From an uncultured bacterium (GTDB lineage Bacteria > Bacteroidota > Bacteroidia > NS11-12g > UBA9320): a stretch of 64,000 nucleotides of DNA. A model generated the notes under the pieces. That model made no database searches and was not told where the DNA came from. It saw only the letters and a program-made list of their open reading frames with translations. The translations under genes were made by a program, and so were the position numbers. The stretch lies in contig CAXDRX010000001.1 of assembly GCA_963991985.1 (NCBI GenBank), positions 3,341 through 67,340 on the forward strand, in the 5' to 3' direction. Every line of letters starts with the position of its first letter. The stretch's first letter is position 1. Shown here piece after piece: positions 34,589 to 46,799 of this stretch.

Positions 34589-34939
34589 TTAACCTCCTTT
34601 TGGTATTACTTTATAACCTTTTTGAATAAGGAATTGGGCAATTTTGTTTCGAAAATCCCCTTGAATCACAATTTCTCCTCCCTTCCATACCCCTCCTGTT
34701 CCGCAAAGCTGCTTAATTTCTTTGGTAAGTTTTTTGGCCTCCTCATCTGATCCTTGAAAACTTTCTATGAGTGTTACTATCTTGCCTTTCCTGTTTTTTT
34801 TATCTCTTGAAAGATATAGTTTTTGATCCTCGGGAAGGATTTCTTGTGCCTCTTCATCAGGTTCAAAGGAATCTTCGGGGTTGGTAGAATACACTAGCCC
34901 ACCAAAATCATTTATTTTCTTCATTTTCTTTTTGGACAT
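34589..34939 (-). CDS. SUI1/YciH-family translation initiation factor
   Basis: GLVYSTNP, RKGKIVTLI, KQLCGTGG, IVIQGDFR. Confidence 0.9.
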   Translation of the reverse strand: MSKKKMKKINDFGGLVYSTNPEDSFEPDEEAQEILPEDQKLYLSRDKKNRKGKIVTLIESFQGSDEEAKKLTKEIKQLCGTGGVWKGGEIVIQGDFRNKIAQFLIQKGYKVIPKGG

Positions 34940-34948
34940 CCTGCAAAT

Positions 34949-36415
34949 TTAGTTTCCTTTCTTTTTGTCTGTTTTTGGATTTACATGCATAGCCAATATT
35001 CTATTAGATTCCTTAATTGTTTGCGGTTTTTTTCGAAATTCCCACAGAATTTTACTCGCTTTGGCCCTCGCCTTTTGAAAATCTACTATGGGGTATGGAT
35101 AATCTTGGCCAATTCTGGTTTTATACATTATTTGATCCATGGCGCTCATTTTCCAGGGTTCATGTACAAGGGATAAAGGAACTCTTCGAAGTTCGGGTAG
35201 CCATTGAACAATAAATTCACCATTGGGGTCATGCTCAAATGAATTTCTTACCGGGTTGTATATACGCAAGGTGTTGAACCCTGTTTCTCCCGCCTGCATA
35301 ATTAATTGGGAATAGTGAATACCAGGCTCAAAGTCTAAAAACTGCTTCGACAAATGGAAACTTGCTTTTTGCCACGGCTGCCACAAAATATGGGTGAAGA
35401 AGCTAATCAAGAGCGCCCGCATTCTGAAATTGAGATAGCCTGTCGCATTCAAACACCTCATACATGCGTCGACCAAAGGGAATCCAGTGTTACCATTTTC
35501 CCAAACTCTTATCAAGTCAGGAATGATCGGCTTTTTCAAATGATTGTACGTTTTATTCAAAGACTCAAATTCCATGCTGCATTCCATTTCAAATTTTTGA
35601 ATGAAATGAGAGTGCCACCTCAACCTACTGATGAATCCGTTGATGGCTCTTTTGTCTGAAGAATCTGATCTAGACATTTTTGCCGCTTGAAATGCCTGTC
35701 TGATGGAAAGGTTGCCCCAAGCCAAATACACGGACAACCTACTACAGTGAATGCGCGAACCCAATGGCTTTGAGATATTTTTTAAATAACCCACGTGCCT
35801 TTTGTTTAGAAAACCTTCTAAATATTTTTTCCCATTTTGCTCCCCTCCCGGTTGACAATGACTATTGGTTTTTTCTAATTCGATGTGAGAAGACCATTCC
35901 ATAATGGTTTTTTTTGACAACATTTGGTTTTGCCTTGGCTGAAAAAAAACGGTAGAAGAATTGACATAATCATTCCATTCTTCAATCCACTTGTTTCGGT
36001 TTTTCATCCCTCGTTTTACTCCTTTGGAAGGTAGCTCATGCCAGACTATATTGTTTTTTTTAAAATATTTAGAAATCTTTTTGTCTCTATCATAAGTTTT
36101 TTTGATTCCCGTTTCTTGACCACTAAAAACACTAGTTATGGAATAATTTTTCTTGAGAAAATCGAAAGCATCTTGGACCTCTAACTCCAAATACAAAACT
36201 TGGGAATCGAACTTTGCCAACTGTACATTTAAATCAAGAATGGATTGTTTAATAAAACTAAAATGCCGCGCGGAATAATGGGGATCCTTTTGAAGGGAGG
36301 GTTCTAGAATATAAAGCAAGCAAAATTTCTGATTTTGTTGTATTGCCCGGCAAATGGCTTCGTTGTCGTGCAAACGCAAGTCTCTTTTCAACCAAACAAT
36401 GTTCATCCTTTGCAC
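34949..36415 (-). CDS. DNA photolyase/cryptochrome family protein
   Basis: VWLKRDLRLHDN, SRLSVYLAWG, GNTGFPLVDACMR, NFRMRA, FLDFEPGIHYSQ, RIYNP. Alternative ATG at 36406. Confidence 0.9.
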   Translation of the reverse strand: MQRMNIVWLKRDLRLHDNEAICRAIQQNQKFCLLYILEPSLQKDPHYSARHFSFIKQSILDLNVQLAKFDSQVLYLELEVQDAFDFLKKNYSITSVFSGQETGIKKTYDRDKKISKYFKKNNIVWHELPSKGVKRGMKNRNKWIEEWNDYVNSSTVFFQPRQNQMLSKKTIMEWSSHIELEKTNSHCQPGGEQNGKKYLEGFLNKRHVGYLKNISKPLGSRIHCSRLSVYLAWGNLSIRQAFQAAKMSRSDSSDKRAINGFISRLRWHSHFIQKFEMECSMEFESLNKTYNHLKKPIIPDLIRVWENGNTGFPLVDACMRCLNATGYLNFRMRALLISFFTHILWQPWQKASFHLSKQFLDFEPGIHYSQLIMQAGETGFNTLRIYNPVRNSFEHDPNGEFIVQWLPELRRVPLSLVHEPWKMSAMDQIMYKTRIGQDYPYPIVDFQKARAKASKILWEFRKKPQTIKESNRILAMHVNPKTDKKKGN

Positions 36416-36484: not shown

Positions 36485-38650
36485 TCATCTCAAGAGGTGC
36501 ACATTCCCTGAATATAATTTTTGATCGCCGTTCAAAAATCGGATACGCAATAGATACCCATAAACACCAAGAGGGGCATTTTCCCCACTCCAGCCGATTT
36601 CTACAATTCTTGGATCCGCGTGGAGAATTTGATGTAAAATTTGTCCATACCGATTGAAAACTATAAAAGATTCGACCTCTTTGATCTGATGAGATCGTAA
36701 ACTTGGTCTAAAAACATTGTTTAATTGGTCGTTGCCTGGGGAAAATGCATTGGGAATAAAAACATGTTGCTTTACTTTAATCTCAACGAATGAAGAATCT
36801 TTCGCAAAACATCCTTTATCACTTTCTGCCAACAATTTTATCCAAAGCGATTGGAAAGGGTAAACGGTGATTGGGGAGCAATTGATGTCACAATTCAACA
36901 GTCCCTCTGGTTTCCAATTGTACATGGCAATGGAGTCATTTGCAGTTGTACTTAGCCGCACAAATTCACCCAACTCTATGGAAGAAAATTTTGGTTGTAT
37001 GTCAATTTCAAATTGGGGAGGATCAAACAATTCGATGGATGTATCCCAGGTGCATGCAACGTTGTCCATTGCACGAATTTTGTATAGGCCTTTGGCCAAA
37101 AACTGAAACCTTCTGATTGTATCAAGTTTATCATTTCCTATTGCAAAAAGGATGGGTAAGATGGCGCCTCTTTCATTCAGCAATTGAATCGAACCCGAAG
37201 TATCACCTGTACAAAGTGGATTTGATGATTTAATGTCTAAAGCCAATGGACTTTCTTTAAAGGTTAATTTTAATACCAGAAAACTATCGCAACCATGTAG
37301 ATCTGAAAATGTATCTCTATAAAGTCCTTCTTTGTCAATATAGGTTCCATTAAATAGTATTTTTTTTCCCTCGCACACAAAAGTGTCTATATATGATGTT
37401 TTGTTCTTTCGGTGTATGAGGTTCATTCTCACTACGCTGTCGCATCCATGACTTCCAAGCAAGGTGTCCAAATAAATACCCTCAGCATTTATTTTCTTAT
37501 TGTTGAAGACTATAAAATCGTTGGGACAAATGAGACTGTCAAAAAAACCAAACTTTATTGGACGTTTGCTCAATGTTAGGAATACTATACTGTCACATCC
37601 ATTTTTGGATACAAATGAGTCTGAATAAATGCCAGGAGTGGAAATATTTCTATTCCCAAAAAAAATGCTGTCTTCACGACAAATAAGAGAGTCAATGAAT
37701 GATAAAATTGGTTTTTTAATTTCAATGAAATTTTCTTCCGAAAGAACCCGACAATTTTGGTTGAGTAAATTGCTCTGAGTGTTGGCCAATAAATAACGAT
37801 ACTTATAAAACCCTACATTCCCATTGCTGTGAATGTAACGATCTTGGTTGGCACCGTAAATATTTGTCCATCCATTTCCATCGTTAATTTGCCATTGATA
37901 ATTGGGTGTATTGTATCTATTCCCCTGGAGACTTGCAATCAAAGTTCTTGGTTTAAAAGATCGCGGACAGATTACATAAGGAGCCCTCGGATTAATAAAT
38001 GCTTTTGGGCCACATGGTCTAAAAGAGATATTGTCCAAAGCCAAATCATTTCCAGCACCTCCCGGAGCATTATTTCTTAGTGATAAGATAAGACTATCTT
38101 GGCCAGGCAGTGTCGAAAAGGTAAATGAATATCGATTCCATTTTTCGTTATTGGGTACATTGCCAGTATTATATTTACTTACTCCATTAATCAGAAATTG
38201 CAAGTTGGGTTTGATGTAATTTGGATAACTTTTATCCATAAGATTGAATACATCAATTGAAAATTCATACGTCGTATTTTCACATAAATCATATACGGTA
38301 TCTATATAAAACAAACCCGATTGAAACGATGCATTTACAACCATCATGTAACCATTTGGGCTGTTACTATTGTCTTGTATACCTTGCCATCCAGCCCATA
38401 AAAAGGGCCAGTTGGCCATATTGTTTGTAATGGTATAATACCCGTCATCCATAGGAACATTGGTGGTATATATATATCCTGGTGCCAATTTGGGGTCTTT
38501 GCTCAACACCGTTGCTGCCCCTTCTCCAAAATCACCATTTTTAAAAATATTTTTGCCCAATTGGCCTGAACACGACTGAGACAGTGCTTCTCTAGACGCA
38601 ATAAGCAAGAAAATGTTTAAGAAAAAGGAGAGAAATTTCTTGCAGGACAC
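36485..38650 (-). CDS. T9SS type-B (gliding-motility-associated CTD) surface protein with lectin-like N-terminus
   Basis: Signal peptide; NGDFG..GYMMVVNAS..GNDLALDNISFRPCGP; three GCDS repeats; C-terminal FIPNAFSPGNDQLNNVF..VFNRYG..GVYGY..GNVHLLR. Confidence 0.85.
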   Translation of the reverse strand: MSCKKFLSFFLNIFLLIASREALSQSCSGQLGKNIFKNGDFGEGAATVLSKDPKLAPGYIYTTNVPMDDGYYTITNNMANWPFLWAGWQGIQDNSNSPNGYMMVVNASFQSGLFYIDTVYDLCENTTYEFSIDVFNLMDKSYPNYIKPNLQFLINGVSKYNTGNVPNNEKWNRYSFTFSTLPGQDSLILSLRNNAPGGAGNDLALDNISFRPCGPKAFINPRAPYVICPRSFKPRTLIASLQGNRYNTPNYQWQINDGNGWTNIYGANQDRYIHSNGNVGFYKYRYLLANTQSNLLNQNCRVLSEENFIEIKKPILSFIDSLICREDSIFFGNRNISTPGIYSDSFVSKNGCDSIVFLTLSKRPIKFGFFDSLICPNDFIVFNNKKINAEGIYLDTLLGSHGCDSVVRMNLIHRKNKTSYIDTFVCEGKKILFNGTYIDKEGLYRDTFSDLHGCDSFLVLKLTFKESPLALDIKSSNPLCTGDTSGSIQLLNERGAILPILFAIGNDKLDTIRRFQFLAKGLYKIRAMDNVACTWDTSIELFDPPQFEIDIQPKFSSIELGEFVRLSTTANDSIAMYNWKPEGLLNCDINCSPITVYPFQSLWIKLLAESDKGCFAKDSSFVEIKVKQHVFIPNAFSPGNDQLNNVFRPSLRSHQIKEVESFIVFNRYGQILHQILHADPRIVEIGWSGENAPLGVYGYLLRIRFLNGDQKLYSGNVHLLR
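37262..37703 (-). repeat. Three tandem ~50-aa cysteine-paired repeats (D(S/T)xxC...GxYxD...GCDS)
   Basis: IDSLICRED..GIYSDSF..GCDSIV; FDSLICPND..GIYLDTL..GCDSVV; IDTFVCEGK..GLYRDTF..GCDSFL. Boundaries are approximate. Confidence 0.75.
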
Positions 38651-39736
38651 CTAGTCCAAAGGTACATTTTTATTTTCTGATTGCACCAATTTGCTTGTGG
38701 GTCTTGTCCATTTTGGCTTTTCTCCCAAGGAATGCAATAATGAGTCTTTTTTCTCCACTGTTTTGGGTTGTGCTTTTTTGATGAAAGCTTTTTGTGGCTT
38801 AAGTCCCAACAAATTAAATAGCTCCATATCCTGATGAACATCTGGGTTGGGAGTTGTGAGAAGCTTATCCCCAGCAAAAATTGAATTTGCGCCAGCAAAG
38901 AAGCACAATGCTTGACCCTCTTGGCTCATTTGTGTTCTGCCTGCAGACAACCTAATTTGGGTTTTTGGCATAACAATTCTTGTGGTTGCAATCATTCTTA
39001 TCATTTCCCAAATCGAAATAGGTTTTTGTTTTTCAAGGGGAGTCCCTTCCACTGCTACAAGGGCATTGATTGGTACTGATTCAGGCTGTGGGCTTAAAGT
39101 TGATAAGGCGATGAGCATAGACACCCTATCCTCTATAGATTCTCCCATTCCAATAATACCACCGGAACAGACGGTCACGTTGGTTTTTCGAACATTTTTT
39201 ATTGTGTCTATTCTATCTTGATAAGCTCGCGTTGAGATCACTTCCTGATAATAGTCTTCGGAGGAATCCAGATTGTGATTGTAAGCATAGAGACCTGCCT
39301 CTGCAAGTCTTTTTGCTTGGTTTTCAGTAATCATGCCTAAGGTACAGCATACCTCCATGTCTAGTTTATTGATGGTACGAACCATTTCCAAAACCTGTTC
39401 AAAATCAGGTCCATCTTTAACATTTCTCCATGCAGCGCCCATACACACACGAGAAGACCCTAGCGCTTTGGCCCTTTTGGCTTGTTCGGAAACTTCCTGA
39501 ACACTCATCAAATCATTTCCTTCGATATCTGTATGATATCGCGCGGCTTGCGGACAATAAGAACAATCCTCAGGACAACCGCCTGTTTTTATTGACAATA
39601 ACGTACTTACTTGAACAATATTTGGATCATGATTTTGTCTATGTATTTGGGCTGCATTAAATAATAACTCCATCATTGGTTGATGGTATATTTCTAGCAT
39701 CTCACTTTGGGTCCAATTGTTTCGAATATCTTGCAT
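38651..39736 (-). CDS. bioB: Biotin synthase
   Basis: [14 protein letters not shown] radical SAM motif, [39 protein letters not shown] 39736 preferred. Confidence 0.97.
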
Positions 39737-39761: not shown

Positions 39762-40907
39762 TTATTGTGCTTTTTCGAGCAATAAACTTGCTGCATTGCC
39801 TCCAAAACCAACTGTATTAATTAAGATTCTTTTTATTTCTCGGCTTTTATAGCTTTGATTTACATAAGGGGTTTTATGCAAAATATTTTCATCCAACATA
39901 AAAAGGGCAAGCTCTAAGCTCAACATACCAGATGCTCCTAATGAATGTCCAACTTTCCATTTGTTTGAAGTGCAAAATGGTGCTTCATTCGGAAATACTT
40001 TATTTATGGCTTTCATTTCGGCCAAATCGCCTTTCATTGTTCCTGGTGCGTGCATAATTATTGCGTCTACAGACGATGGATCATGGCTTGACAAAGCGCC
40101 AGTCATTGATTTTTGAAGCGACACTCCATCTTTTTGTATTGATACTCCATTGGATAGTGCTTCTGTGCCATATCCCCAACCAATGATATGACAAAGAGCA
40201 TTTTCTTTTTTTCCGGCTGTTAAGCAAGCGGCACCGGCTCCCTCGCCCAACACCATGGTATTTTCTTTTTTTGCCAAATCCATGCTCCGGCAAGGAAACC
40301 CTTTTTTCAGATTGCTATAAATTTTTAATGCTTTCATTTGCCCAAAGGTAAAAGGCGTTAGTGGAGCCTCCGTCCCTCCAACCAAAAAATGGTTCACAAA
40401 ACCAGATTTCAACCAAACTATCCCATTCAATATGGAATGAAACGATGAAGAACAAGTAATAGAGTGAGAAATATTTGGGCCTTGGGCTTCTAGGTCATGA
40501 CCAACCCAAGAGGCGATATTCCCTGCTGTTGTTATGGGTGAGGTTCGAATATGTGTCACATTGGAAGTCAAAAAATCCCTGTGATGTGCCTCGATAGATT
40601 CCGTTGGTCCCCTTGAAGATCCTATGTTTACACCAAGTGAATCTTCTTTTGACAAGTTTGCCATTCCTTTTGCCTGCCTAGACACAAAGAGCGCATATAG
40701 GGTTGTTTTGTCTAGATGTCTGTAAGGAAATTCTTGCTTTATCTTTTTGATTTCTTCCCAAGATTCTGATGGAATTTTACCTTGCCAAATACCGTCAATT
40801 TTGGTCAGATTGTGATCGTTTTTTTTGTAGGATTGATAAATATTTTTCTTCCGGTGGCCCAGTGCAGAAAGAGATGAAAAACCAACAATAGAAAAACTTT
40901 CACTCAT
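39762..40907 (-). CDS. FabB/FabF-like beta-ketoacyl synthase inside the biotin operon
   Basis: Catalytic Cys in SITCSSS, VGGTEA, LGEGAG, His in MHAPGT, His in [18 protein letters not shown]. Confidence 0.88.
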
Positions 40908-42180
40908 TTAATTCACCAAATTTATCCAAACATGCAAGAATAGTTTCATAGATTTTATTCAATTGTTTGTTTGACGTTACAAAAGGGGGTGTGAGATAAA
41001 TTGTATTGCCCAAAGGCCGCAAAAAAATTCCTTTATCCATAAAAAACTGAAATATTTCATTTCTTTTTTCCCCATATCTATTGAGGACTTGGGAGAGCTC
41101 AAATGCCATTATTATTCCTTCATTCCTTACGTTTTTGACCCTTTGGTCATTTTTTAATTTCGTACAAAAAATTTGGTGCTGTTTTTCGATTCTTTGTTTG
41201 TTTGATTTCATTTCGTTTGAATGATAAAGATCAATAGCAACACTTGCTATTTTACAAGCAATCGGGTTGGCTGTGTAGGTATGACCATGAAAAAATCCTT
41301 TGGCATTTTTATCACTCAAAAATGCATTGAAAATTGTTTCGGTGCAGGAGGTTATTCCCATGGGGACCATTCCGGCAGTCAATGCCTTTGAAAGACAAAC
41401 AATGTCGGGTTGGATGGTTGCTTGTAGGGAGGCAAAAATATCTCTGGTCTTGCCAAAGCCCGTCATCACTTCATCTGCAATTTTAAGGACATTGTATTGT
41501 TTGCACAATCGCAGAAGCTGACATAAGAATTTTGCTTTATACATTTTCATTCCCGCTGCTCCTTGAACCAAAGGTTCGTATATGAATCCAATTACGTCGC
41601 CTACTTGTAGAATTTTTTCAAGCTTGGTCAATACTAGTTCTAGATTGTCTTCATCTGGGATAGGTATTCTCTTTACAGAAACAAAAAAGTCTTCAAATGC
41701 GCCGTTGTACACAGACAAGCCTGAGACAGACATTGCACCAAATGTGTCGCCATGGAAACCTTCTTCAAATGCAACAAAAACTTTTCTTCTTTCACCTTGA
41801 TTATGAAAATATTGAATGGCCATTTTTAAAGCAACATCTACCGAAGTAGAGCCATTTTCGCTAAAGAACAGTCTGTTTTGCCCAAAAGGAAGCAAAGGAA
41901 TTAGTTTTTCAGAAAGTTCTATGGCAGGCTCATGGGTGAAACCTGCAAAAACAATCTGATCCATATTTTCCATTTGCGCAGCAGCAGCATCTATGAGTTT
42001 GGGATGACAATGACCGTAAATGGCCGTATACCAAGAGGCAATTGCATCAATGTATTCGTTCCCAAATTCGTCCAACAAAAGGGCCCCTTTGGTTTTTTGA
42101 ATCCCTAAAGCCTCTGGGAGAAGTTGGTGTTGGGTCAAAGGATGCCAAATGTGCTTTTTATCTCGTTTGCTCAAACTCAT
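40900..42180 (-). CDS. bioA: Adenosylmethionine-8-amino-7-oxononanoate transaminase
   Basis: IWHPLTQ, NGSTSVDVALKMA, FHGDTFGAMS, EPLVQGAAGM, ADEVMTGFGKT, SKALT, HGHTYTANP. Confidence 0.96.
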   Translation of the reverse strand: MSLSKRDKKHIWHPLTQHQLLPEALGIQKTKGALLLDEFGNEYIDAIASWYTAIYGHCHPKLIDAAAAQMENMDQIVFAGFTHEPAIELSEKLIPLLPFGQNRLFFSENGSTSVDVALKMAIQYFHNQGERRKVFVAFEEGFHGDTFGAMSVSGLSVYNGAFEDFFVSVKRIPIPDEDNLELVLTKLEKILQVGDVIGFIYEPLVQGAAGMKMYKAKFLCQLLRLCKQYNVLKIADEVMTGFGKTRDIFASLQATIQPDIVCLSKALTAGMVPMGITSCTETIFNAFLSDKNAKGFFHGHTYTANPIACKIASVAIDLYHSNEMKSNKQRIEKQHQIFCTKLKNDQRVKNVRNEGIIMAFELSQVLNRYGEKRNEIFQFFMDKGIFLRPLGNTIYLTPPFVTSNKQLNKIYETILACLDKFGELNE

Positions 42181-42800
42181 AAAATAGAAAGAAGCTTAGG
42201 TTTTATGTTATGAGCGTATTGTTGGATGATTTTTGGTGTAATTCTATCGTGTTGTTCTAGCCTACCCAAAGTTGGCAAACCGCTTTTTTGAAGAATAATG
42301 TCTTGAGTAGATTTATTTTTTTTTCCATTGAATAGCAAAACAATTTTTTTAAATCCTCGGCTTTTTAATATTTCTATGCTCATCAGGGTATGGTTTATAC
42401 TACCTAGATAATTTTTGGAGACCAATACAATAAGATCATCGTTATGGATCAAATCTACGATGGTATCTTTATGATTGAGCGGAACAAGCAAACCTCCAGC
42501 CCCTTCGATGACCAATTTGTTTTTGGTTGTAGGTCTTTTAATGTTTTTTAAATTTATCTGCAGGTTTTCTAGTTCTGCCGCGGCATGAGGACTCATCGGT
42601 TTTTCTAGTGCATAGGCGTGGGGGTGTATTACTATGGAATTGTCCTGAAGGTAATGAGCAATGGAATGAGCATCTGAAAAGTCCAAATTACCAGATTGAA
42701 TTGGCTTCCAATAATCTGCTCGAAGCGCTTGAACCAGTATGGAAGATGCAATTGTCTTTCCTACATCTGTAGAAATTCCTGTAACGAATAAGTTAGTCAA
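42177..42800 (-). CDS. bioD: Dethiobiotin synthase
   Basis: FVTGISTDVGKT, YWKPIQSG, SPHAAA, IEGAGGLLVP, LGSINHT. Confidence 0.96.
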   Translation of the reverse strand: MTNLFVTGISTDVGKTIASSILVQALRADYWKPIQSGNLDFSDAHSIAHYLQDNSIVIHPHAYALEKPMSPHAAAELENLQINLKNIKRPTTKNKLVIEGAGGLLVPLNHKDTIVDLIHNDDLIVLVSKNYLGSINHTLMSIEILKSRGFKKIVLLFNGKKNKSTQDIILQKSGLPTLGRLEQHDRITPKIIQQYAHNIKPKLLSIL

Positions 42801-43947
42801 ATTTGGATCGAATTTTTTTAAGTTCTTTTAAGAGTTTTTCTATTTGGTTGTCACTATTGAAACTATGCAAACAGATACGCAATCTTTCTTTATTTTTTGG
42901 AACAGTTGGCGAAAGTATAGCTTTTACCAAAAATCCCTTATCATGCAACATAGAAGAAGCCTTTTTTACCTCAAAATTTCCCTTCATTACATATGATTGT
43001 ATGGCTGAATGGCTCGGATAAAAATTGTCTAATTCTAATTGATTTTTTAAATCATTGAACAATGAAATTTTCTTTGTCAATTGCCTTTGCAAATGGTTTC
43101 GGTTCAACATCCATTCATAGGCAGACTGAATGGTTGCAACACTATACGGGCTCATTGAGGTGCTATAAATCAAAGACCTTGCATAGTTGATCAAAAATTT
43201 TTTTAATGACTCAGCTCCTAAAATGGCGGCGCCATGGCAGCCCAGCGCTTTTCCAAATGTGACTACCCTCGCAAAAACTTTTTCTTCCAATGCATATTTT
43301 TGAACTAAGCCTTCACCTTTGTTGCCAAATACCCCTATGGCATGGGCCTCATCCAATACCAAATGTAATTTTTTATCGGAACAATAATTTGCCAATTCAA
43401 GCAAATTGGGGCTATCCCCATCCATGGAGAAAATGGTTTCGCTGACCACATAAAACTCATGGGCACCCTTTTTTCTGCATAACTCTACTTTATGGGCCAA
43501 ATCCGCCAAATCATTGTGTTTAAATTTAATGGCTTTTGCAAAGCCCATTTTTATACCATCTCGTATGGAGGCATGAATCAATTCATCATAAAAAATATAA
43601 TCTCCTCGTTGAGGTACAGAAGAAAAAAAACCAATATTGGCATCATAGCCTGAATTGAACAATAAGGCACTATCAGAATGATGAAAATGCTTTAAGAAAT
43701 CTTCCAATTTTTGGTGTATAATATGATTGCCCGACAACAACCGCGAACCAGTGCTACCATTTATATTTTCTGTCTGGCAAAGTTTTTTTAGAACAGCCTC
43801 ATGGATGGCTTCTTCCTTGGCCAAACCCAAATAATCGTTTGAAAAAAAATCCTCCCCATTTTTGATAACAGAAGGCAAAACCCTCAAATTATCTGAATGA
43901 TGCCTTTGTGATAATTTTTCTTTCAGTCTTTTGGGAATCTCCTGCAC
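42793..43947 (-). CDS. bioF: 8-amino-7-oxononanoate synthase
   Basis: FFSNDYLGL, GSRLLSGN, SGYDAN, HASIRDG, FSMDGD, DEAHA, TFGKALG; first gene of the bio cluster. Confidence 0.93.
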   Translation of the reverse strand: MQEIPKRLKEKLSQRHHSDNLRVLPSVIKNGEDFFSNDYLGLAKEEAIHEAVLKKLCQTENINGSTGSRLLSGNHIIHQKLEDFLKHFHHSDSALLFNSGYDANIGFFSSVPQRGDYIFYDELIHASIRDGIKMGFAKAIKFKHNDLADLAHKVELCRKKGAHEFYVVSETIFSMDGDSPNLLELANYCSDKKLHLVLDEAHAIGVFGNKGEGLVQKYALEEKVFARVVTFGKALGCHGAAILGAESLKKFLINYARSLIYSTSMSPYSVATIQSAYEWMLNRNHLQRQLTKKISLFNDLKNQLELDNFYPSHSAIQSYVMKGNFEVKKASSMLHDKGFLVKAILSPTVPKNKERLRICLHSFNSDNQIEKLLKELKKIRSKFD

Positions 43948-43988: not shown

Positions 43989-46637
43989 TTAGTTTTTAGA
44001 AAACCGCAAAAATCCCAAGGTGTGGATTTGTAAAATAAATGTCCCAGCGGAAAGAGCTTTTACATCTATTTTACCATTTTTTACTGTCCCCGTCAAAACT
44101 TCTTGACCTGATGCATTGAAAATATTAAAATATCCTTCTTTAATCTCTTGAAGAAAAATATGATTTTTTACTGGATTGGGATAAAATGCGATCTTTTTGA
44201 TTTGGATATTATTAACAAAAGTGATTTGATCGAATTTTAATGTAGAATCGGTTTTTTCCTTACATTGCGACGCTTGATCAATAATCTCTAAGTCAACATC
44301 TACATATTGTTTGTTGGCAGTTTGTGAAAGCAAAAATGATACTACCGAATCATTGGTTTGCAGAAAGCCACCTTCCATTGGTTGTAATTTCCAATCCGTT
44401 TGAGCATTTTTTACGTCAGTAATGGCTGAGAGAAAGAATCGGCTTTCCTCTTCAAAGGGTTGTTTTTTTGCAGCAATTTTTGCCATTGGTTTTGGCTTTA
44501 GTTGAAAGGAATCAATGTCTTTGAACAACAATGGACAAATTGATGATTTTTTAACGGCGGTGTCAACCTGGATCTTGAGCCATTGAAAGGAGCTATCCAT
44601 AATGATAGCCACTACAATGGAGTCTTTGCTGGAAAACAAAGGTTGAACTTTTTTATTATTTAGTGATACGCTAAAGGAAGCACTGTCGACGTTTTCGTTC
44701 AATGTGTTCAATGCAATTTGATGCATTCCTTTGGCCAAGCAAGTATCCGTTTTTCTGATTAAATTTAGTCGGGGCGACGGGTAAGTAACCACCATAGAAG
44801 ATTTTTGGCTAACACAACCCGTTTTTGAATTGGAAAAAACATATCGAACAATTGTATTCCCCACCTCAAAAATCCCTTGCTTACCTTCTTCTACTTTTTT
44901 ATTGTTCAATAACCATTCCCCACCCTCGGGCATCGCATCCAAAGGAAATGGACTTTCACCATCGCATCTATAAAGGGTATCTCCAAAAGAAAAATGACTG
45001 GAATAAATTGAATCCATGCCATTCAAGAAAAACGTCATATTTTCTTTTGCTTCACAGCCTTTTGCCATTGTTTTGTATTGCAATAAAAATTTTGCATCCT
45101 TATATTTTTGGCTTTCGTTTGAATTGACCTGGATGCTATCTCCTTTCGGCACCCCAATTTGACTTGGCTTATCGAAACCAGTTGTATCAATAACTTTCCA
45201 GACACCTCCAGGTGGTTGAATGGAAAATAAAGAGCCCAAAGAAATGGTCCCTTGATTGAAACATGCCGGATTGGCTGTTTTATATGAAATACTTGGGCTT
45301 GCAACGATGATAATTTGCGCTGTGTCCTCAAAATGACAACCTTGCACATTTAAAACATGGTGAATCAACGATATTGTGTCTACTCCCTGGTTTGAGTGAT
45401 TGAATCTAGACAATGAAAGATAGGTAGTGTCTTGAAAAACACGGAGCACGCTATCCAAATTTTTACAATCTAAGCAAGTCCAATAGGAACTATCTACATT
45501 TTTCTTTATCAAGACTTGGTTGGCATCCAAGTTGATTTCCTTTAATGACTGGCAATAAAGGCTATTTTTCAATACTATTTCCGGGTTTTCAAACTTTTGA
45601 ACAAAACGCGTACTTGATACATTCTTACAACCCGATTTGGAAACCGTAAAAAAATAAGATCCTGAATCTTTCACCCAAATGGAATTTCCGCTTTGGCCAT
45701 CACTCCATTGATATTTCGCTCCTGGCGTATATTGGGCCAAAAGATTGATGGAATCCCCGGCACATAAATTTTGATTTTCGTTGCTTAGCCATTTGACTTT
45801 AGGTTTTGCCAATACAGTAATTTTTATGGAGTCGTATGGGCCAAAACCGTTTTTGTTTTTTGCTCTCGCGGAGACATAAAATACTCCTGCGTCCGGAAAA
45901 AAAATGTTCCCAGGATTTTGTTGATTGGAACTGTCCATATTTCCACCGTTTATTTTCCAGTCATAAGCTGTGGGATTGGCACTTGCAGTGGCAGAAAAAT
46001 AAACTGCTTCTTCTGCGCATAGAGTAGTCCGATTAGCGCCTATAGATGTTATGGGGACCGAATCTTGAGCATATTTAAAACGGAATGTTTTGGCATATAC
46101 TTGGTCTCCTGAGTTTTGGCTATTTGCATTGGCCGCCATCACTACTGCATAAAACTTTACATTTCCTTGGTAGTTTTTGGGTGCTTTCCAGCGAAACTGC
46201 CAATCTGTACTATCGGTGCCTGTGGTACTCGTACCCGTTGTGGTATGTAATAGATACTGCCGTGTGTTGCTTCCATATATCCTTGTTTTTTTCTGGACAC
46301 GATTGCTGAATGTCGAAAGTGTACCTACGGGCTTATTGTTGGTATCTAAAGCCGTAATCTGAAATCCAAATTTATTTATGGATGACTGTTTGTAACTCAA
46401 TTTTACTGCATAGGTGCTATCTGCTTTATATTTCCCAGAGATAAAGTTGCCCGTGAGGTTAATCTTGGCCCAATTGGTCCCGCTGGTGATGAGAGAACCT
46501 GAATGGCAAGATGTGCAGTTGTTCTCACTTGGAGCATTGGTATAACCACCACCCGGACCAGAAGTATAGGTTAAAGATTTTGTAGCAACCAAAAGTGCCA
46601 AAATCAAGGTGGAAAAATAGATTGTGTTTTTTCTCAT
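43989..46637 (-). CDS. T9SS type-A-sorted protein with N-terminal Reeler-like (choice-of-anchor V-like) CxxCH domain, PKD and Ig-like repeats
   Basis: Signal peptide from ATG 46637; TNAPSENNCTSCHSG, FGFQITA, WQFRWKAP, SGDQVY; PKD YDWKING; FYPNPVKN..LSAGTFIL C-terminal domain. Confidence 0.78.
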   Translation of the reverse strand: MRKNTIYFSTLILALLVATKSLTYTSGPGGGYTNAPSENNCTSCHSGSLITSGTNWAKINLTGNFISGKYKADSTYAVKLSYKQSSINKFGFQITALDTNNKPVGTLSTFSNRVQKKTRIYGSNTRQYLLHTTTGTSTTGTDSTDWQFRWKAPKNYQGNVKFYAVVMAANANSQNSGDQVYAKTFRFKYAQDSVPITSIGANRTTLCAEEAVYFSATASANPTAYDWKINGGNMDSSNQQNPGNIFFPDAGVFYVSARAKNKNGFGPYDSIKITVLAKPKVKWLSNENQNLCAGDSINLLAQYTPGAKYQWSDGQSGNSIWVKDSGSYFFTVSKSGCKNVSSTRFVQKFENPEIVLKNSLYCQSLKEINLDANQVLIKKNVDSSYWTCLDCKNLDSVLRVFQDTTYLSLSRFNHSNQGVDTISLIHHVLNVQGCHFEDTAQIIIVASPSISYKTANPACFNQGTISLGSLFSIQPPGGVWKVIDTTGFDKPSQIGVPKGDSIQVNSNESQKYKDAKFLLQYKTMAKGCEAKENMTFFLNGMDSIYSSHFSFGDTLYRCDGESPFPLDAMPEGGEWLLNNKKVEEGKQGIFEVGNTIVRYVFSNSKTGCVSQKSSMVVTYPSPRLNLIRKTDTCLAKGMHQIALNTLNENVDSASFSVSLNNKKVQPLFSSKDSIVVAIIMDSSFQWLKIQVDTAVKKSSICPLLFKDIDSFQLKPKPMAKIAAKKQPFEEESRFFLSAITDVKNAQTDWKLQPMEGGFLQTNDSVVSFLLSQTANKQYVDVDLEIIDQASQCKEKTDSTLKFDQITFVNNIQIKKIAFYPNPVKNHIFLQEIKEGYFNIFNASGQEVLTGTVKNGKIDVKALSAGTFILQIHTLGFLRFSKN

Positions 46638-46799
46638 CAACTGGTGTACAGATAAAGAACAAATTTTCAGCAATTTCTGTTTTTAAACCCCATAATAGAA
46701 AATAAATGGTGGTGCACCTCTAGTATTGAACCTGCATTGATGACAAACTATTGATACTTTGATATTTTTCTATACATTTGAATCTCATTACTCTTTATT

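Follow-up and report, generated by a model that had tools for sequence, protein, structure and literature searches.

The window analysed here, a 64,000-nucleotide stretch of contig CAXDRX010000001.1 (assembly GCA_963991985.1) from an uncultured bacterium of the Bacteroidota, carries a biotin operon in which a ketosynthase (KS) gene stands between bioA and bioB. We think it quite likely that this KS serves to provide biotin with its pimelate moiety. The operon lies on the minus strand and begins with bioF (8-amino-7-oxononanoate synthase, 42793..43947), the product of which uses up the pimeloyl thioester, followed by bioD (dethiobiotin synthase, 42177..42800), bioA (adenosylmethionine-8-amino-7-oxononanoate transaminase, 40900..42180), the KS gene, our candidate for a pimeloyl-precursor enzyme (39762..40907), and bioB (biotin synthase, 38651..39736). 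BioD (TIGR00347, 113 bits against a cut-off of 83; PF13500), BioA (TIGR00508, 512 bits against 405) and BioB (TIGR00433, 408 bits against 225) all exceed the thresholds of their family models. BioF is matched by PF00155 and by TIGR00858, the latter with 320 bits, which falls short of the 426-bit cut-off yet exceeds any other NCBIfam family by about 95 bits; with such a sub-cut-off score, annotation pipelines may label the gene merely as a BioF/Kbl-family acyltransferase. The genes are tightly packed. The bioF and bioD genes overlap by 8 bp and bioD and bioA by 4 bp, and the ATG of the KS gene (40905-40907) overlaps the bioA stop by 8 bp, as ATGAGTGA; its TAA stop (39762-39764) is separated by 25 nt from the bioB start, an ATG at 39736 in the reading frame of the BioB match. 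The KS gene is translationally coupled within the operon. Inspection of the open reading frames of the operon, combined with NCBIfam and Pfam scans, revealed no bioC, esterase, bioW, P450, bioZ or acyl carrier protein (ACP) gene.

As judged from its sequence, the KS belongs to the beta-ketoacyl-ACP synthase (KAS) I/II condensing enzymes, the Cys-His-His class. Its N-terminal and C-terminal ketoacyl-synthase domains (PF00109, 60 bits; PF02801, 58 bits) both score above their cut-offs, and its best NCBIfam model is the FabF equivalog TIGR03150, which is matched with just 129 bits where 493.75 would be required. When the PDB was searched with a profile, FabF was recovered at about 138 bits. An AlphaFold2 model built from 22 family members (predicted local distance difference test, pLDDT, 86.9; predicted template modelling score, pTM, 0.90) has FabF and FabB structures as its top Foldseek matches, with template modelling (TM) scores of 0.84-0.88 at 19-25% identity. 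The motifs ITCSSS, MHAPGT and VGHSLG are present, and alignment with E. coli K-12 FabF equates Cys152, the catalytic residue, with C163 (codon 40452..40454), His286 with H303 (40050..40052), Lys316 with K335 (39960-39962), His321 with H340 (39945..39947) and the gating Phe368 with F400; all these codons are on the minus strand, and those of the Cys and the two His were checked. All 86 family members share the catalytic Cys, both His, the Lys and the gating Phe. At 381 amino acids, compared to 413 in FabF, the KS is about 30 residues shorter, with three loop deletions, and in a quick tree its family forms a single clade, separate from FabF, on a long branch. An earlier interpretation, made from the DNA letters without database searches (hereafter the sequence-only reading), had described a 381-amino-acid KS with an intact Cys-His-His triad, divergent from housekeeping FabF, overlapping bioA by 8 bp and lying 25 nt from bioB in an operon devoid of the genes of known pimelate routes; each of these details, down to the quoted motifs and the order of the bio genes, withstood the present scans and alignments.

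The genome, a 1.82-Mb assembly in 57 contigs that is 100% complete, also encodes an ordinary FabF next to acpP on contig C3, together with one ACP (the product of acpP), one FabH, one FabD and one FabG orthologue. Because the genome keeps a normal FabF, the KS is an additional, divergent KAS I/II-type enzyme rather than the housekeeping one. No dedicated ACP was found in this genome besides the single housekeeping acpP.

The two papers on the recently described enzyme BioE list four pimelate routes only, namely BioC-BioH, BioI-BioW, BioZ and BioE (PMC12704756, PMC12915131). The sequence-only reading had raised the question of a complete BioC-plus-esterase route elsewhere in the genome. Within the assembly, with 12 of 12 candidates scored, the best match to BioC (TIGR02072) reached 78.9 bits, with the cut-off at 185, covering only the part that binds S-adenosylmethionine (SAM); the best match to BioH reached 43 bits against 207; and no BioG was found. 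Neither BioW nor a P450 of the BioI type was detected in this genome, and in the search for BioZ, the sole KAS III, on contig C15, turned out to be a FabH-like orthologue. BioC and BioG seeds from Bacteroidia retrieved nothing from the genome beyond the same weak BioC match (E 3e-8), a methyltransferase on contig C5 (C5:73562-74353).

The C5 methyltransferase was considered as a divergent BioC and rejected: its match is confined to the SAM-binding part (model positions 35-137 of 244), bio genes are absent from its neighbourhood, and it lacks an orthologue in five of the five named KS-positive genomes. This protein is a genus-specific class I methyltransferase, of which G021, the sister species, has an orthologue and four BioB-negative relatives have none. 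It is the starting point for the view that the KS plays an accessory part and does not define the route, either elongating a disguised intermediate made by an unrecognised partner or moving pimeloyl between CoA and ACP. Under this view, it matters that the best NCBIfam match of the C5 enzyme is indeed BioC and that its orthologue belongs to the one other genome of the genus that has a KS, and also that BioH-type esterases are diverse and could be missed, the seven alpha/beta-hydrolase matches in the genome being all below cut-off. However, the match lies far under the threshold, and the properties that disqualify the C5 enzyme as a BioC count equally against it as a partner. Moreover, no partner gene is conserved among the 80 family loci described below, where no methyltransferase, esterase, ACP, reductase or dehydratase recurs. 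The commonest extra neighbours in those loci are a RecX-like gene (62), a DUF2007 gene between bioF and bioD (42) and a Cupin_8 gene (40), and neither DUF2007 nor Cupin_8 has a homologue in the genome studied here. We regard the accessory role as improbable.

The KS departs from FabF in the predicted acyl pocket. Arg99 (codon 40611..40613, minus strand, checked) aligns with E. coli FabF Ile108, in the back gate of the acyl pocket. All 86 family members have Arg at this position, even those with just 32-44% identity, and both housekeeping FabFs compared have Ile. The FabF gate pair, Ile108 and Phe202, is not kept in the KS, which has Arg99 and Met191 instead. Additional family-invariant differences from FabF are T102 (L111 in FabF), T127 (I138), N130 (M141), T187 (G198) and Q190 (G201), all at FabF positions that we take to be pocket-lining. 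In FabF, the I108-F202 gate the pocket at chain carbons C7-C8, and the I108F substitution limits loading to short chains (PMC9006962). A gate at the C7-C8 depth is about where the carboxylate of a Cys-bound C5 diacid would lie, so that Arg99 would be well placed to meet it. A polar pocket that bears an arginine would, conversely, be unsuited to fatty acyl chains.

The family is large and tightly linked to the biotin genes. At least 588 stretches encoding it are present in species-representative genomes; among the matches listed, 120 are close relatives at 49-61% identity, usually annotated as 'beta-ketoacyl synthase N-terminal-like domain-containing protein'. In the best 80 of these 588 or more stretches, bioA is located directly upstream of the KS gene on the same strand in 79 cases, bioF and bioD are both present in 76, and bioB lies downstream in 48 on the same strand and in 6 on the opposite strand. 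The lone exception to the bioA-KS arrangement is Pedobacter alpinus (L080; 6040-7317, 7965-9143). The KS of that species keeps the Arg, the Cys and both His, but bio genes are missing from the surrounding 8 kb; about 650 nt upstream of it is a gene of the acetyl-CoA hydrolase/transferase family (PF13336, PF02550), a single case in which the neighbour is a possible diacid-activating partner.

The phyletic pattern was traced in a sample of 151 Flavobacteriaceae genomes, with a KS threshold of E<=1e-60. BioB is encoded in 94 of the 151. The KS was detected in 87 genomes at this threshold, every one of them BioB-positive, and four further BioB-positive genomes have a KS beside bioB whose match is split by an internal insertion, which brings the total to 91 of 94. 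No KS was found in the 57 BioB-negative genomes at E<=1e-60, a cut that misses insertion-split forms, so that such forms could be hidden there. The four insertion-bearing genes (G235:C7:416084-417280, G238:C3:391021-392247, G245:C1:2657918-2659252 and G284:C1:2141738-2142931) have open frames of 411-453 amino acids, with the insertion near residue 200 and the match halved. Two of the BioB-positive genomes without a KS match are G178, where bioB is at a contig end, and G153, the only genome of the 151 with BioC and the only one with BioG, in a bioB-A-F-G-C-D cluster. The BioC search at this level scored up to 16 candidates per genome; its result is backed by the BioG search, in which all candidates were scored in the rows listed, by the 12 of 12 candidates scored in the genome studied here and by the five named genomes, in which every candidate was scored. 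BioE was found in 0 of the 151 Flavobacteriaceae, and the same profile, as a positive control, matched 9 of 221 genomes in a sample of the class.

In that class sample, where the KS threshold was E<=1e-35, 13 genomes are KS-positive and 9 BioE-positive. All 22 fall within the 129 BioB-positive genomes, a count that includes the unpublished genome G384, which enters no other result, and the two sets do not overlap. The class-level BioC profile (1 of 221 genomes, with only 11 candidates per genome scored) was not used as evidence. In the samples, the KS is anti-correlated with BioC and BioG and with BioE.

The order to which the window belongs offers a closer view of this exclusivity. BioB occurs in only 8 of its 121 genomes, and the KS is limited to the genus of the window (2 of 121 genomes in the order, 2 of 66 in the family). 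The other six BioB-positive genomes have bioB-bioF-bioD-bioA followed by a gene for a protein of about 203 amino acids (L095-L100, corresponding to G074, G053, G082, G075, G086 and G061) in which E26, E53, H56, E125, E155 and H158 are invariant. The iron ligands of BioE, as given for E. meningoseptica in PMC12704756, are E26, E53, H56, E125, E155 and H158. Because the ligand positions match exactly, we identify the protein of the relatives as BioE. No model or match for it exists in Pfam, NCBIfam or the PDB; the range of BioE therefore extends past the families named in the text of PMC12704756 and PMC12915131, in a form unannotated by current libraries. When four of the six proteins were used in tblastn searches, the best match in the genome studied here had an E value of 0.14, and the 80 KS loci yielded no match. 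The order bioB-F-D-A-bioE in the relatives compared to bioB-F-D-A-KS in G373, a genome of another family, indicates that KS and BioE fill the same slot.

These patterns have to be weighed against the possibility that the KS is unrelated to pimelate, being a lipid or polyketide enzyme that travels with the bio genes while pimelate or biotin is acquired externally or made in another way. The family members of Pedobacter (L080) and of G434 (L120), which are located away from bio genes, would be in accord with such a role. So would the 107 of 129 BioB-positive genomes of the class sample that have no KS, BioE or model-level BioC, although the BioC search was insensitive; unrecognised pimelate routes clearly exist in Bacteroidia. 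However, a mere passenger would hardly be expected to co-occur with BioB as strictly as the KS does in Flavobacteriaceae, to be translationally coupled inside the operon, to occupy the slot of BioE, to have a pocket apparently ill suited to fatty acyl chains, or to be kept in addition to a separate, normal FabF. We regard an unrelated role as improbable. The expectations of the sequence-only reading fared well in this part of the analysis: its proposal of a KAS I/II-type functional analog acting toward pimeloyl-ACP gains support from the linkage, the phyletic pattern and the presence of Arg99; the profiling it called for ties the family to bio genes and sets it apart from BioC, BioG and BioE; the concern that the family might mostly occur away from bio genes is answered by the 79 of 80 loci beside bioA; and the basic pocket residue that it predicted has a plausible counterpart in the invariant Arg99.

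Taken together, these results translate into a simple model. Under this model, which we consider probable, a stand-alone KAS II-type KS with an arginine-capped polar pocket represents a further pimelate route, which uses an acyl primer with a free omega-carboxyl group and involves neither the ester disguise of BioC-BioH nor oxidative cleavage, is the main route in Flavobacteriaceae, occurs in several other Bacteroidota families and swaps with BioE in the operon slot. A dedicated KAS I/II enzyme would thereby provide BioF with a pimeloyl thioester. Initially, a glutaryl thioester, in all likelihood glutaryl-CoA from lysine or tryptophan catabolism, would acylate Cys152, while Arg99 would hold the free omega-carboxylate in a pocket that is otherwise polar (T102, T127, N130, T187, Q190). 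Decarboxylative condensation with malonyl-ACP would then yield 3-oxopimeloyl-ACP, which the housekeeping FabG, FabZ and enoyl reductase would convert to pimeloyl-ACP. In this scheme we infer which substrates the KS uses, what Arg99 does and that the ACP and reductases are the housekeeping ones. Cys152 could well carry a C5 diacid, as a charged residue is predicted at C5-C7 depth in a shortened, polar pocket, and a reaction of the BioZ type suits a stand-alone KS because the C7 3-oxo intermediate can go to the enzymes of type II fatty acid synthesis. In the BioZ route, too, housekeeping fatty acid synthesis finishes 3-oxopimeloyl-ACP, according to PMC12915131. The specific chemistry, in which a KAS II scaffold would condense a glutaryl thioester with malonyl-ACP as BioZ does, is more tentative than the route itself, and we would place it just short of an even chance. 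The genome does encode a glutaryl-CoA dehydrogenase (GCDH): a search against solved structures sets one of its three acyl-CoA dehydrogenases as GCDH (430 bits to solved GCDHs versus 250 bits to the next class), NCBIfam naming being indecisive. Because this gene is present, glutaryl-CoA is plausibly a metabolite of the host.

Several considerations weigh against the model. KAS I/II enzymes normally accept acyl-ACP rather than acyl-CoA primers, and we know of no source of glutaryl-ACP. GCDH is a common enzyme, and its presence is just a necessary condition for the proposed chemistry. In the literature covered, we found no member of the KS family that had been put to a biochemical or genetic test, and the placement of Arg99 in the pocket is predicted from the alignment. 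In addition to the two family members that are found away from bio genes, the BioB-positive flavobacterial genome G260 has no match to KS, BioC, BioG or BioE. The bioB product of G260 (L116) is 78% identical to that of the window, with no bioF, bioD or bioA within 9 kb; bioB may be the only bio gene of this genome, with dethiobiotin as the starting material. Furthermore, kin are not independent, and the phyletic counts accordingly overstate the statistical weight of the pattern. Finally, BioZ grips the glutaryl carboxyl via Ser84 and Ser287 (PMC12625853), whereas the candidate for this function in the KS is the invariant Arg.

The serious rival to this model, although we hold it to be rather unlikely, is an iterative supply of pimelate from malonyl-ACP without methyl esters, in which a malonyl primer would retain its carboxylate and be extended in two rounds, to glutaryl-ACP and then to pimeloyl-ACP. 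Such a route would need no external glutaryl thioester, which suits a family found in at least 588 species-level genomes and a genome of 1.8 Mb; a KAS II-type enzyme would naturally accept its ACP-bound primers; and the evidence from linkage and exclusivity fits it equally well. However, the Bacteroidota operons include no dedicated ACP, reductase or dehydratase, and the genome studied here has a single ACP. Without dedicated enzymes, the iterative route makes the housekeeping ones handle 3-oxoglutaryl-ACP, a free beta-keto acid, and the usual explanation of BioC methylation is precisely that it avoids the handling of this intermediate as a free acid. Moreover, the Arg at the Ile108 position, at about C7-C8, would be distant from the carboxylate of a C3 primer. 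The proposal itself comes from Desulfovibrio, in which the DVU2563 cluster is required for biotin-free growth, an observation read in PMC10102598 as ester-free malonyl-ACP elongation by enzymes with less hydrophobic active sites.

With regard to the origin of the operon, the BioB of the window is 76-82% identical to BioB of Flavobacteriaceae versus 56-62% to that of relatives from its own order, and the gene order is the flavobacterial one. In the quick tree, the KS sequences of the window and G021 are placed in an unresolved polytomy and not within the Flavobacteriaceae clade of 77 rows. Sequence comparison thus makes it likely that the whole bioFDA-KS-B module was acquired by transfer. What is new here is that the KS is present in a bacterium other than the Flavobacteriaceae, the streamlined 1.8-Mb genome of which has one ACP and lacks the accessory genes, and the finding that relatives from the same order have BioE in the KS slot.

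The surroundings of the operon include two large surface proteins sorted by the type IX secretion system (T9SS), which flank it (flanking window regions 34589-36415, 36485-38650 and 43989-46673, minus strand): one of 721 amino acids with a CHU_C/type B sorting domain, and one of 894 amino acids with a choice-of-anchor V domain and Por_Secre_tail. Photolyase and YciH/SUI1 genes are located nearby. Only 41 nt separate bioF from its upstream gene. A sigma-70 promoter scan of the operon performed no better than on shuffled sequences, promoter and terminator models being uninformative for the host phylum, and Rfam and tRNA scans of the window gave no matches.

In the biotin pathway, it is the synthesis of the pimelate arm that varies and is still incompletely known, with BioE described only in 2025. 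If the proposed route is real, it would explain the biotin prototrophy of most Flavobacteriaceae, dominant marine and freshwater heterotrophs in communities that are shaped by vitamin supply, and many hundreds of genomes in which the gene bears the generic label 'beta-ketoacyl synthase' would receive a corrected annotation. The route would also represent a second independent conversion of a fatty-acid condensing enzyme to a dicarboxylate enzyme and could provide a one-gene tool for the production of pimeloyl-ACP or biotin without methyl esters.

Among known systems, FabF and FabB share with the KS the fold, the Pfam domains, the catalytic Cys, the two His, the Lys and the gating Phe. The KS differs from them in being only 19-25% identical and shorter, in the replacement of Ile108 with Arg and of several other pocket positions with polar residues, and in forming a clade of its own. 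BioE resembles the KS in its location, the slot after bioA in the relatives, and in being confined to BioB-positive genomes without other routes. The two are nevertheless unrelated in fold and chemistry: BioE, known from Weeksellaceae and other groups, is a ferritin-like diiron oxygenase that oxidatively cleaves long acyl chains, as described in PMC12704756 and PMC12915131.

The closest parallel in concept is the extended biotin cluster DVU2558-DVU2565 of Desulfovibrio vulgaris, which includes the FabF-like DVU2563 and is supported by randomly barcoded transposon sequencing (RB-TnSeq) (PMC10102598, which cites Rodionov 2004 and Lin & Cronan 2011). In both cases, a FabF-type KS resides within a bio cluster that contains no bioC or bioH, and for Desulfovibrio, too, ester-free synthesis of pimeloyl-ACP has been proposed (PMC10102598). 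However, the Desulfovibrio cluster also specifies a dedicated ACP, a 3-oxoacyl-ACP reductase and a pair of FabZ-like proteins and needs a nitroreductase-like gene, and it is reported there from a few anaerobic phyla only, whereas the Bacteroidota version consists of the KS alone. The resemblance to DVU2563, which is itself biochemically undefined, is one of concept. The sequence-only reading knew of no characterised enzyme of this kind. This assertion holds for the Bacteroidota enzyme, of which we found no description in the literature covered, supplements and subscription journals lying outside that coverage; it has to be relaxed for FabF-type enzymes in general, given the precedent of the DVU2563 cluster and its RB-TnSeq support (PMC10102598).

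BioZ, finally, is the KAS III of alpha-proteobacterial biotin synthesis (PMC7645780, PMC8024396, PMC12625853), which condenses a C5 diacid thioester with malonyl-ACP to 3-oxopimeloyl-ACP and passes the product to housekeeping fatty acid synthesis (PMC7645780, PMC12915131). It is a FabH-like enzyme with a Cys-His-Asn triad, whereas the KS is KAS I/II-like, with Cys-His-His, the Lys and the gating Phe; because fold class and triad differ, the KS is not a member of the BioZ family. Nevertheless, both are condensing enzymes encoded in the bio operons of organisms without BioC/BioH, BioW or BioI, and they appear to share the role, the reaction favoured here for the KS being that of BioZ.

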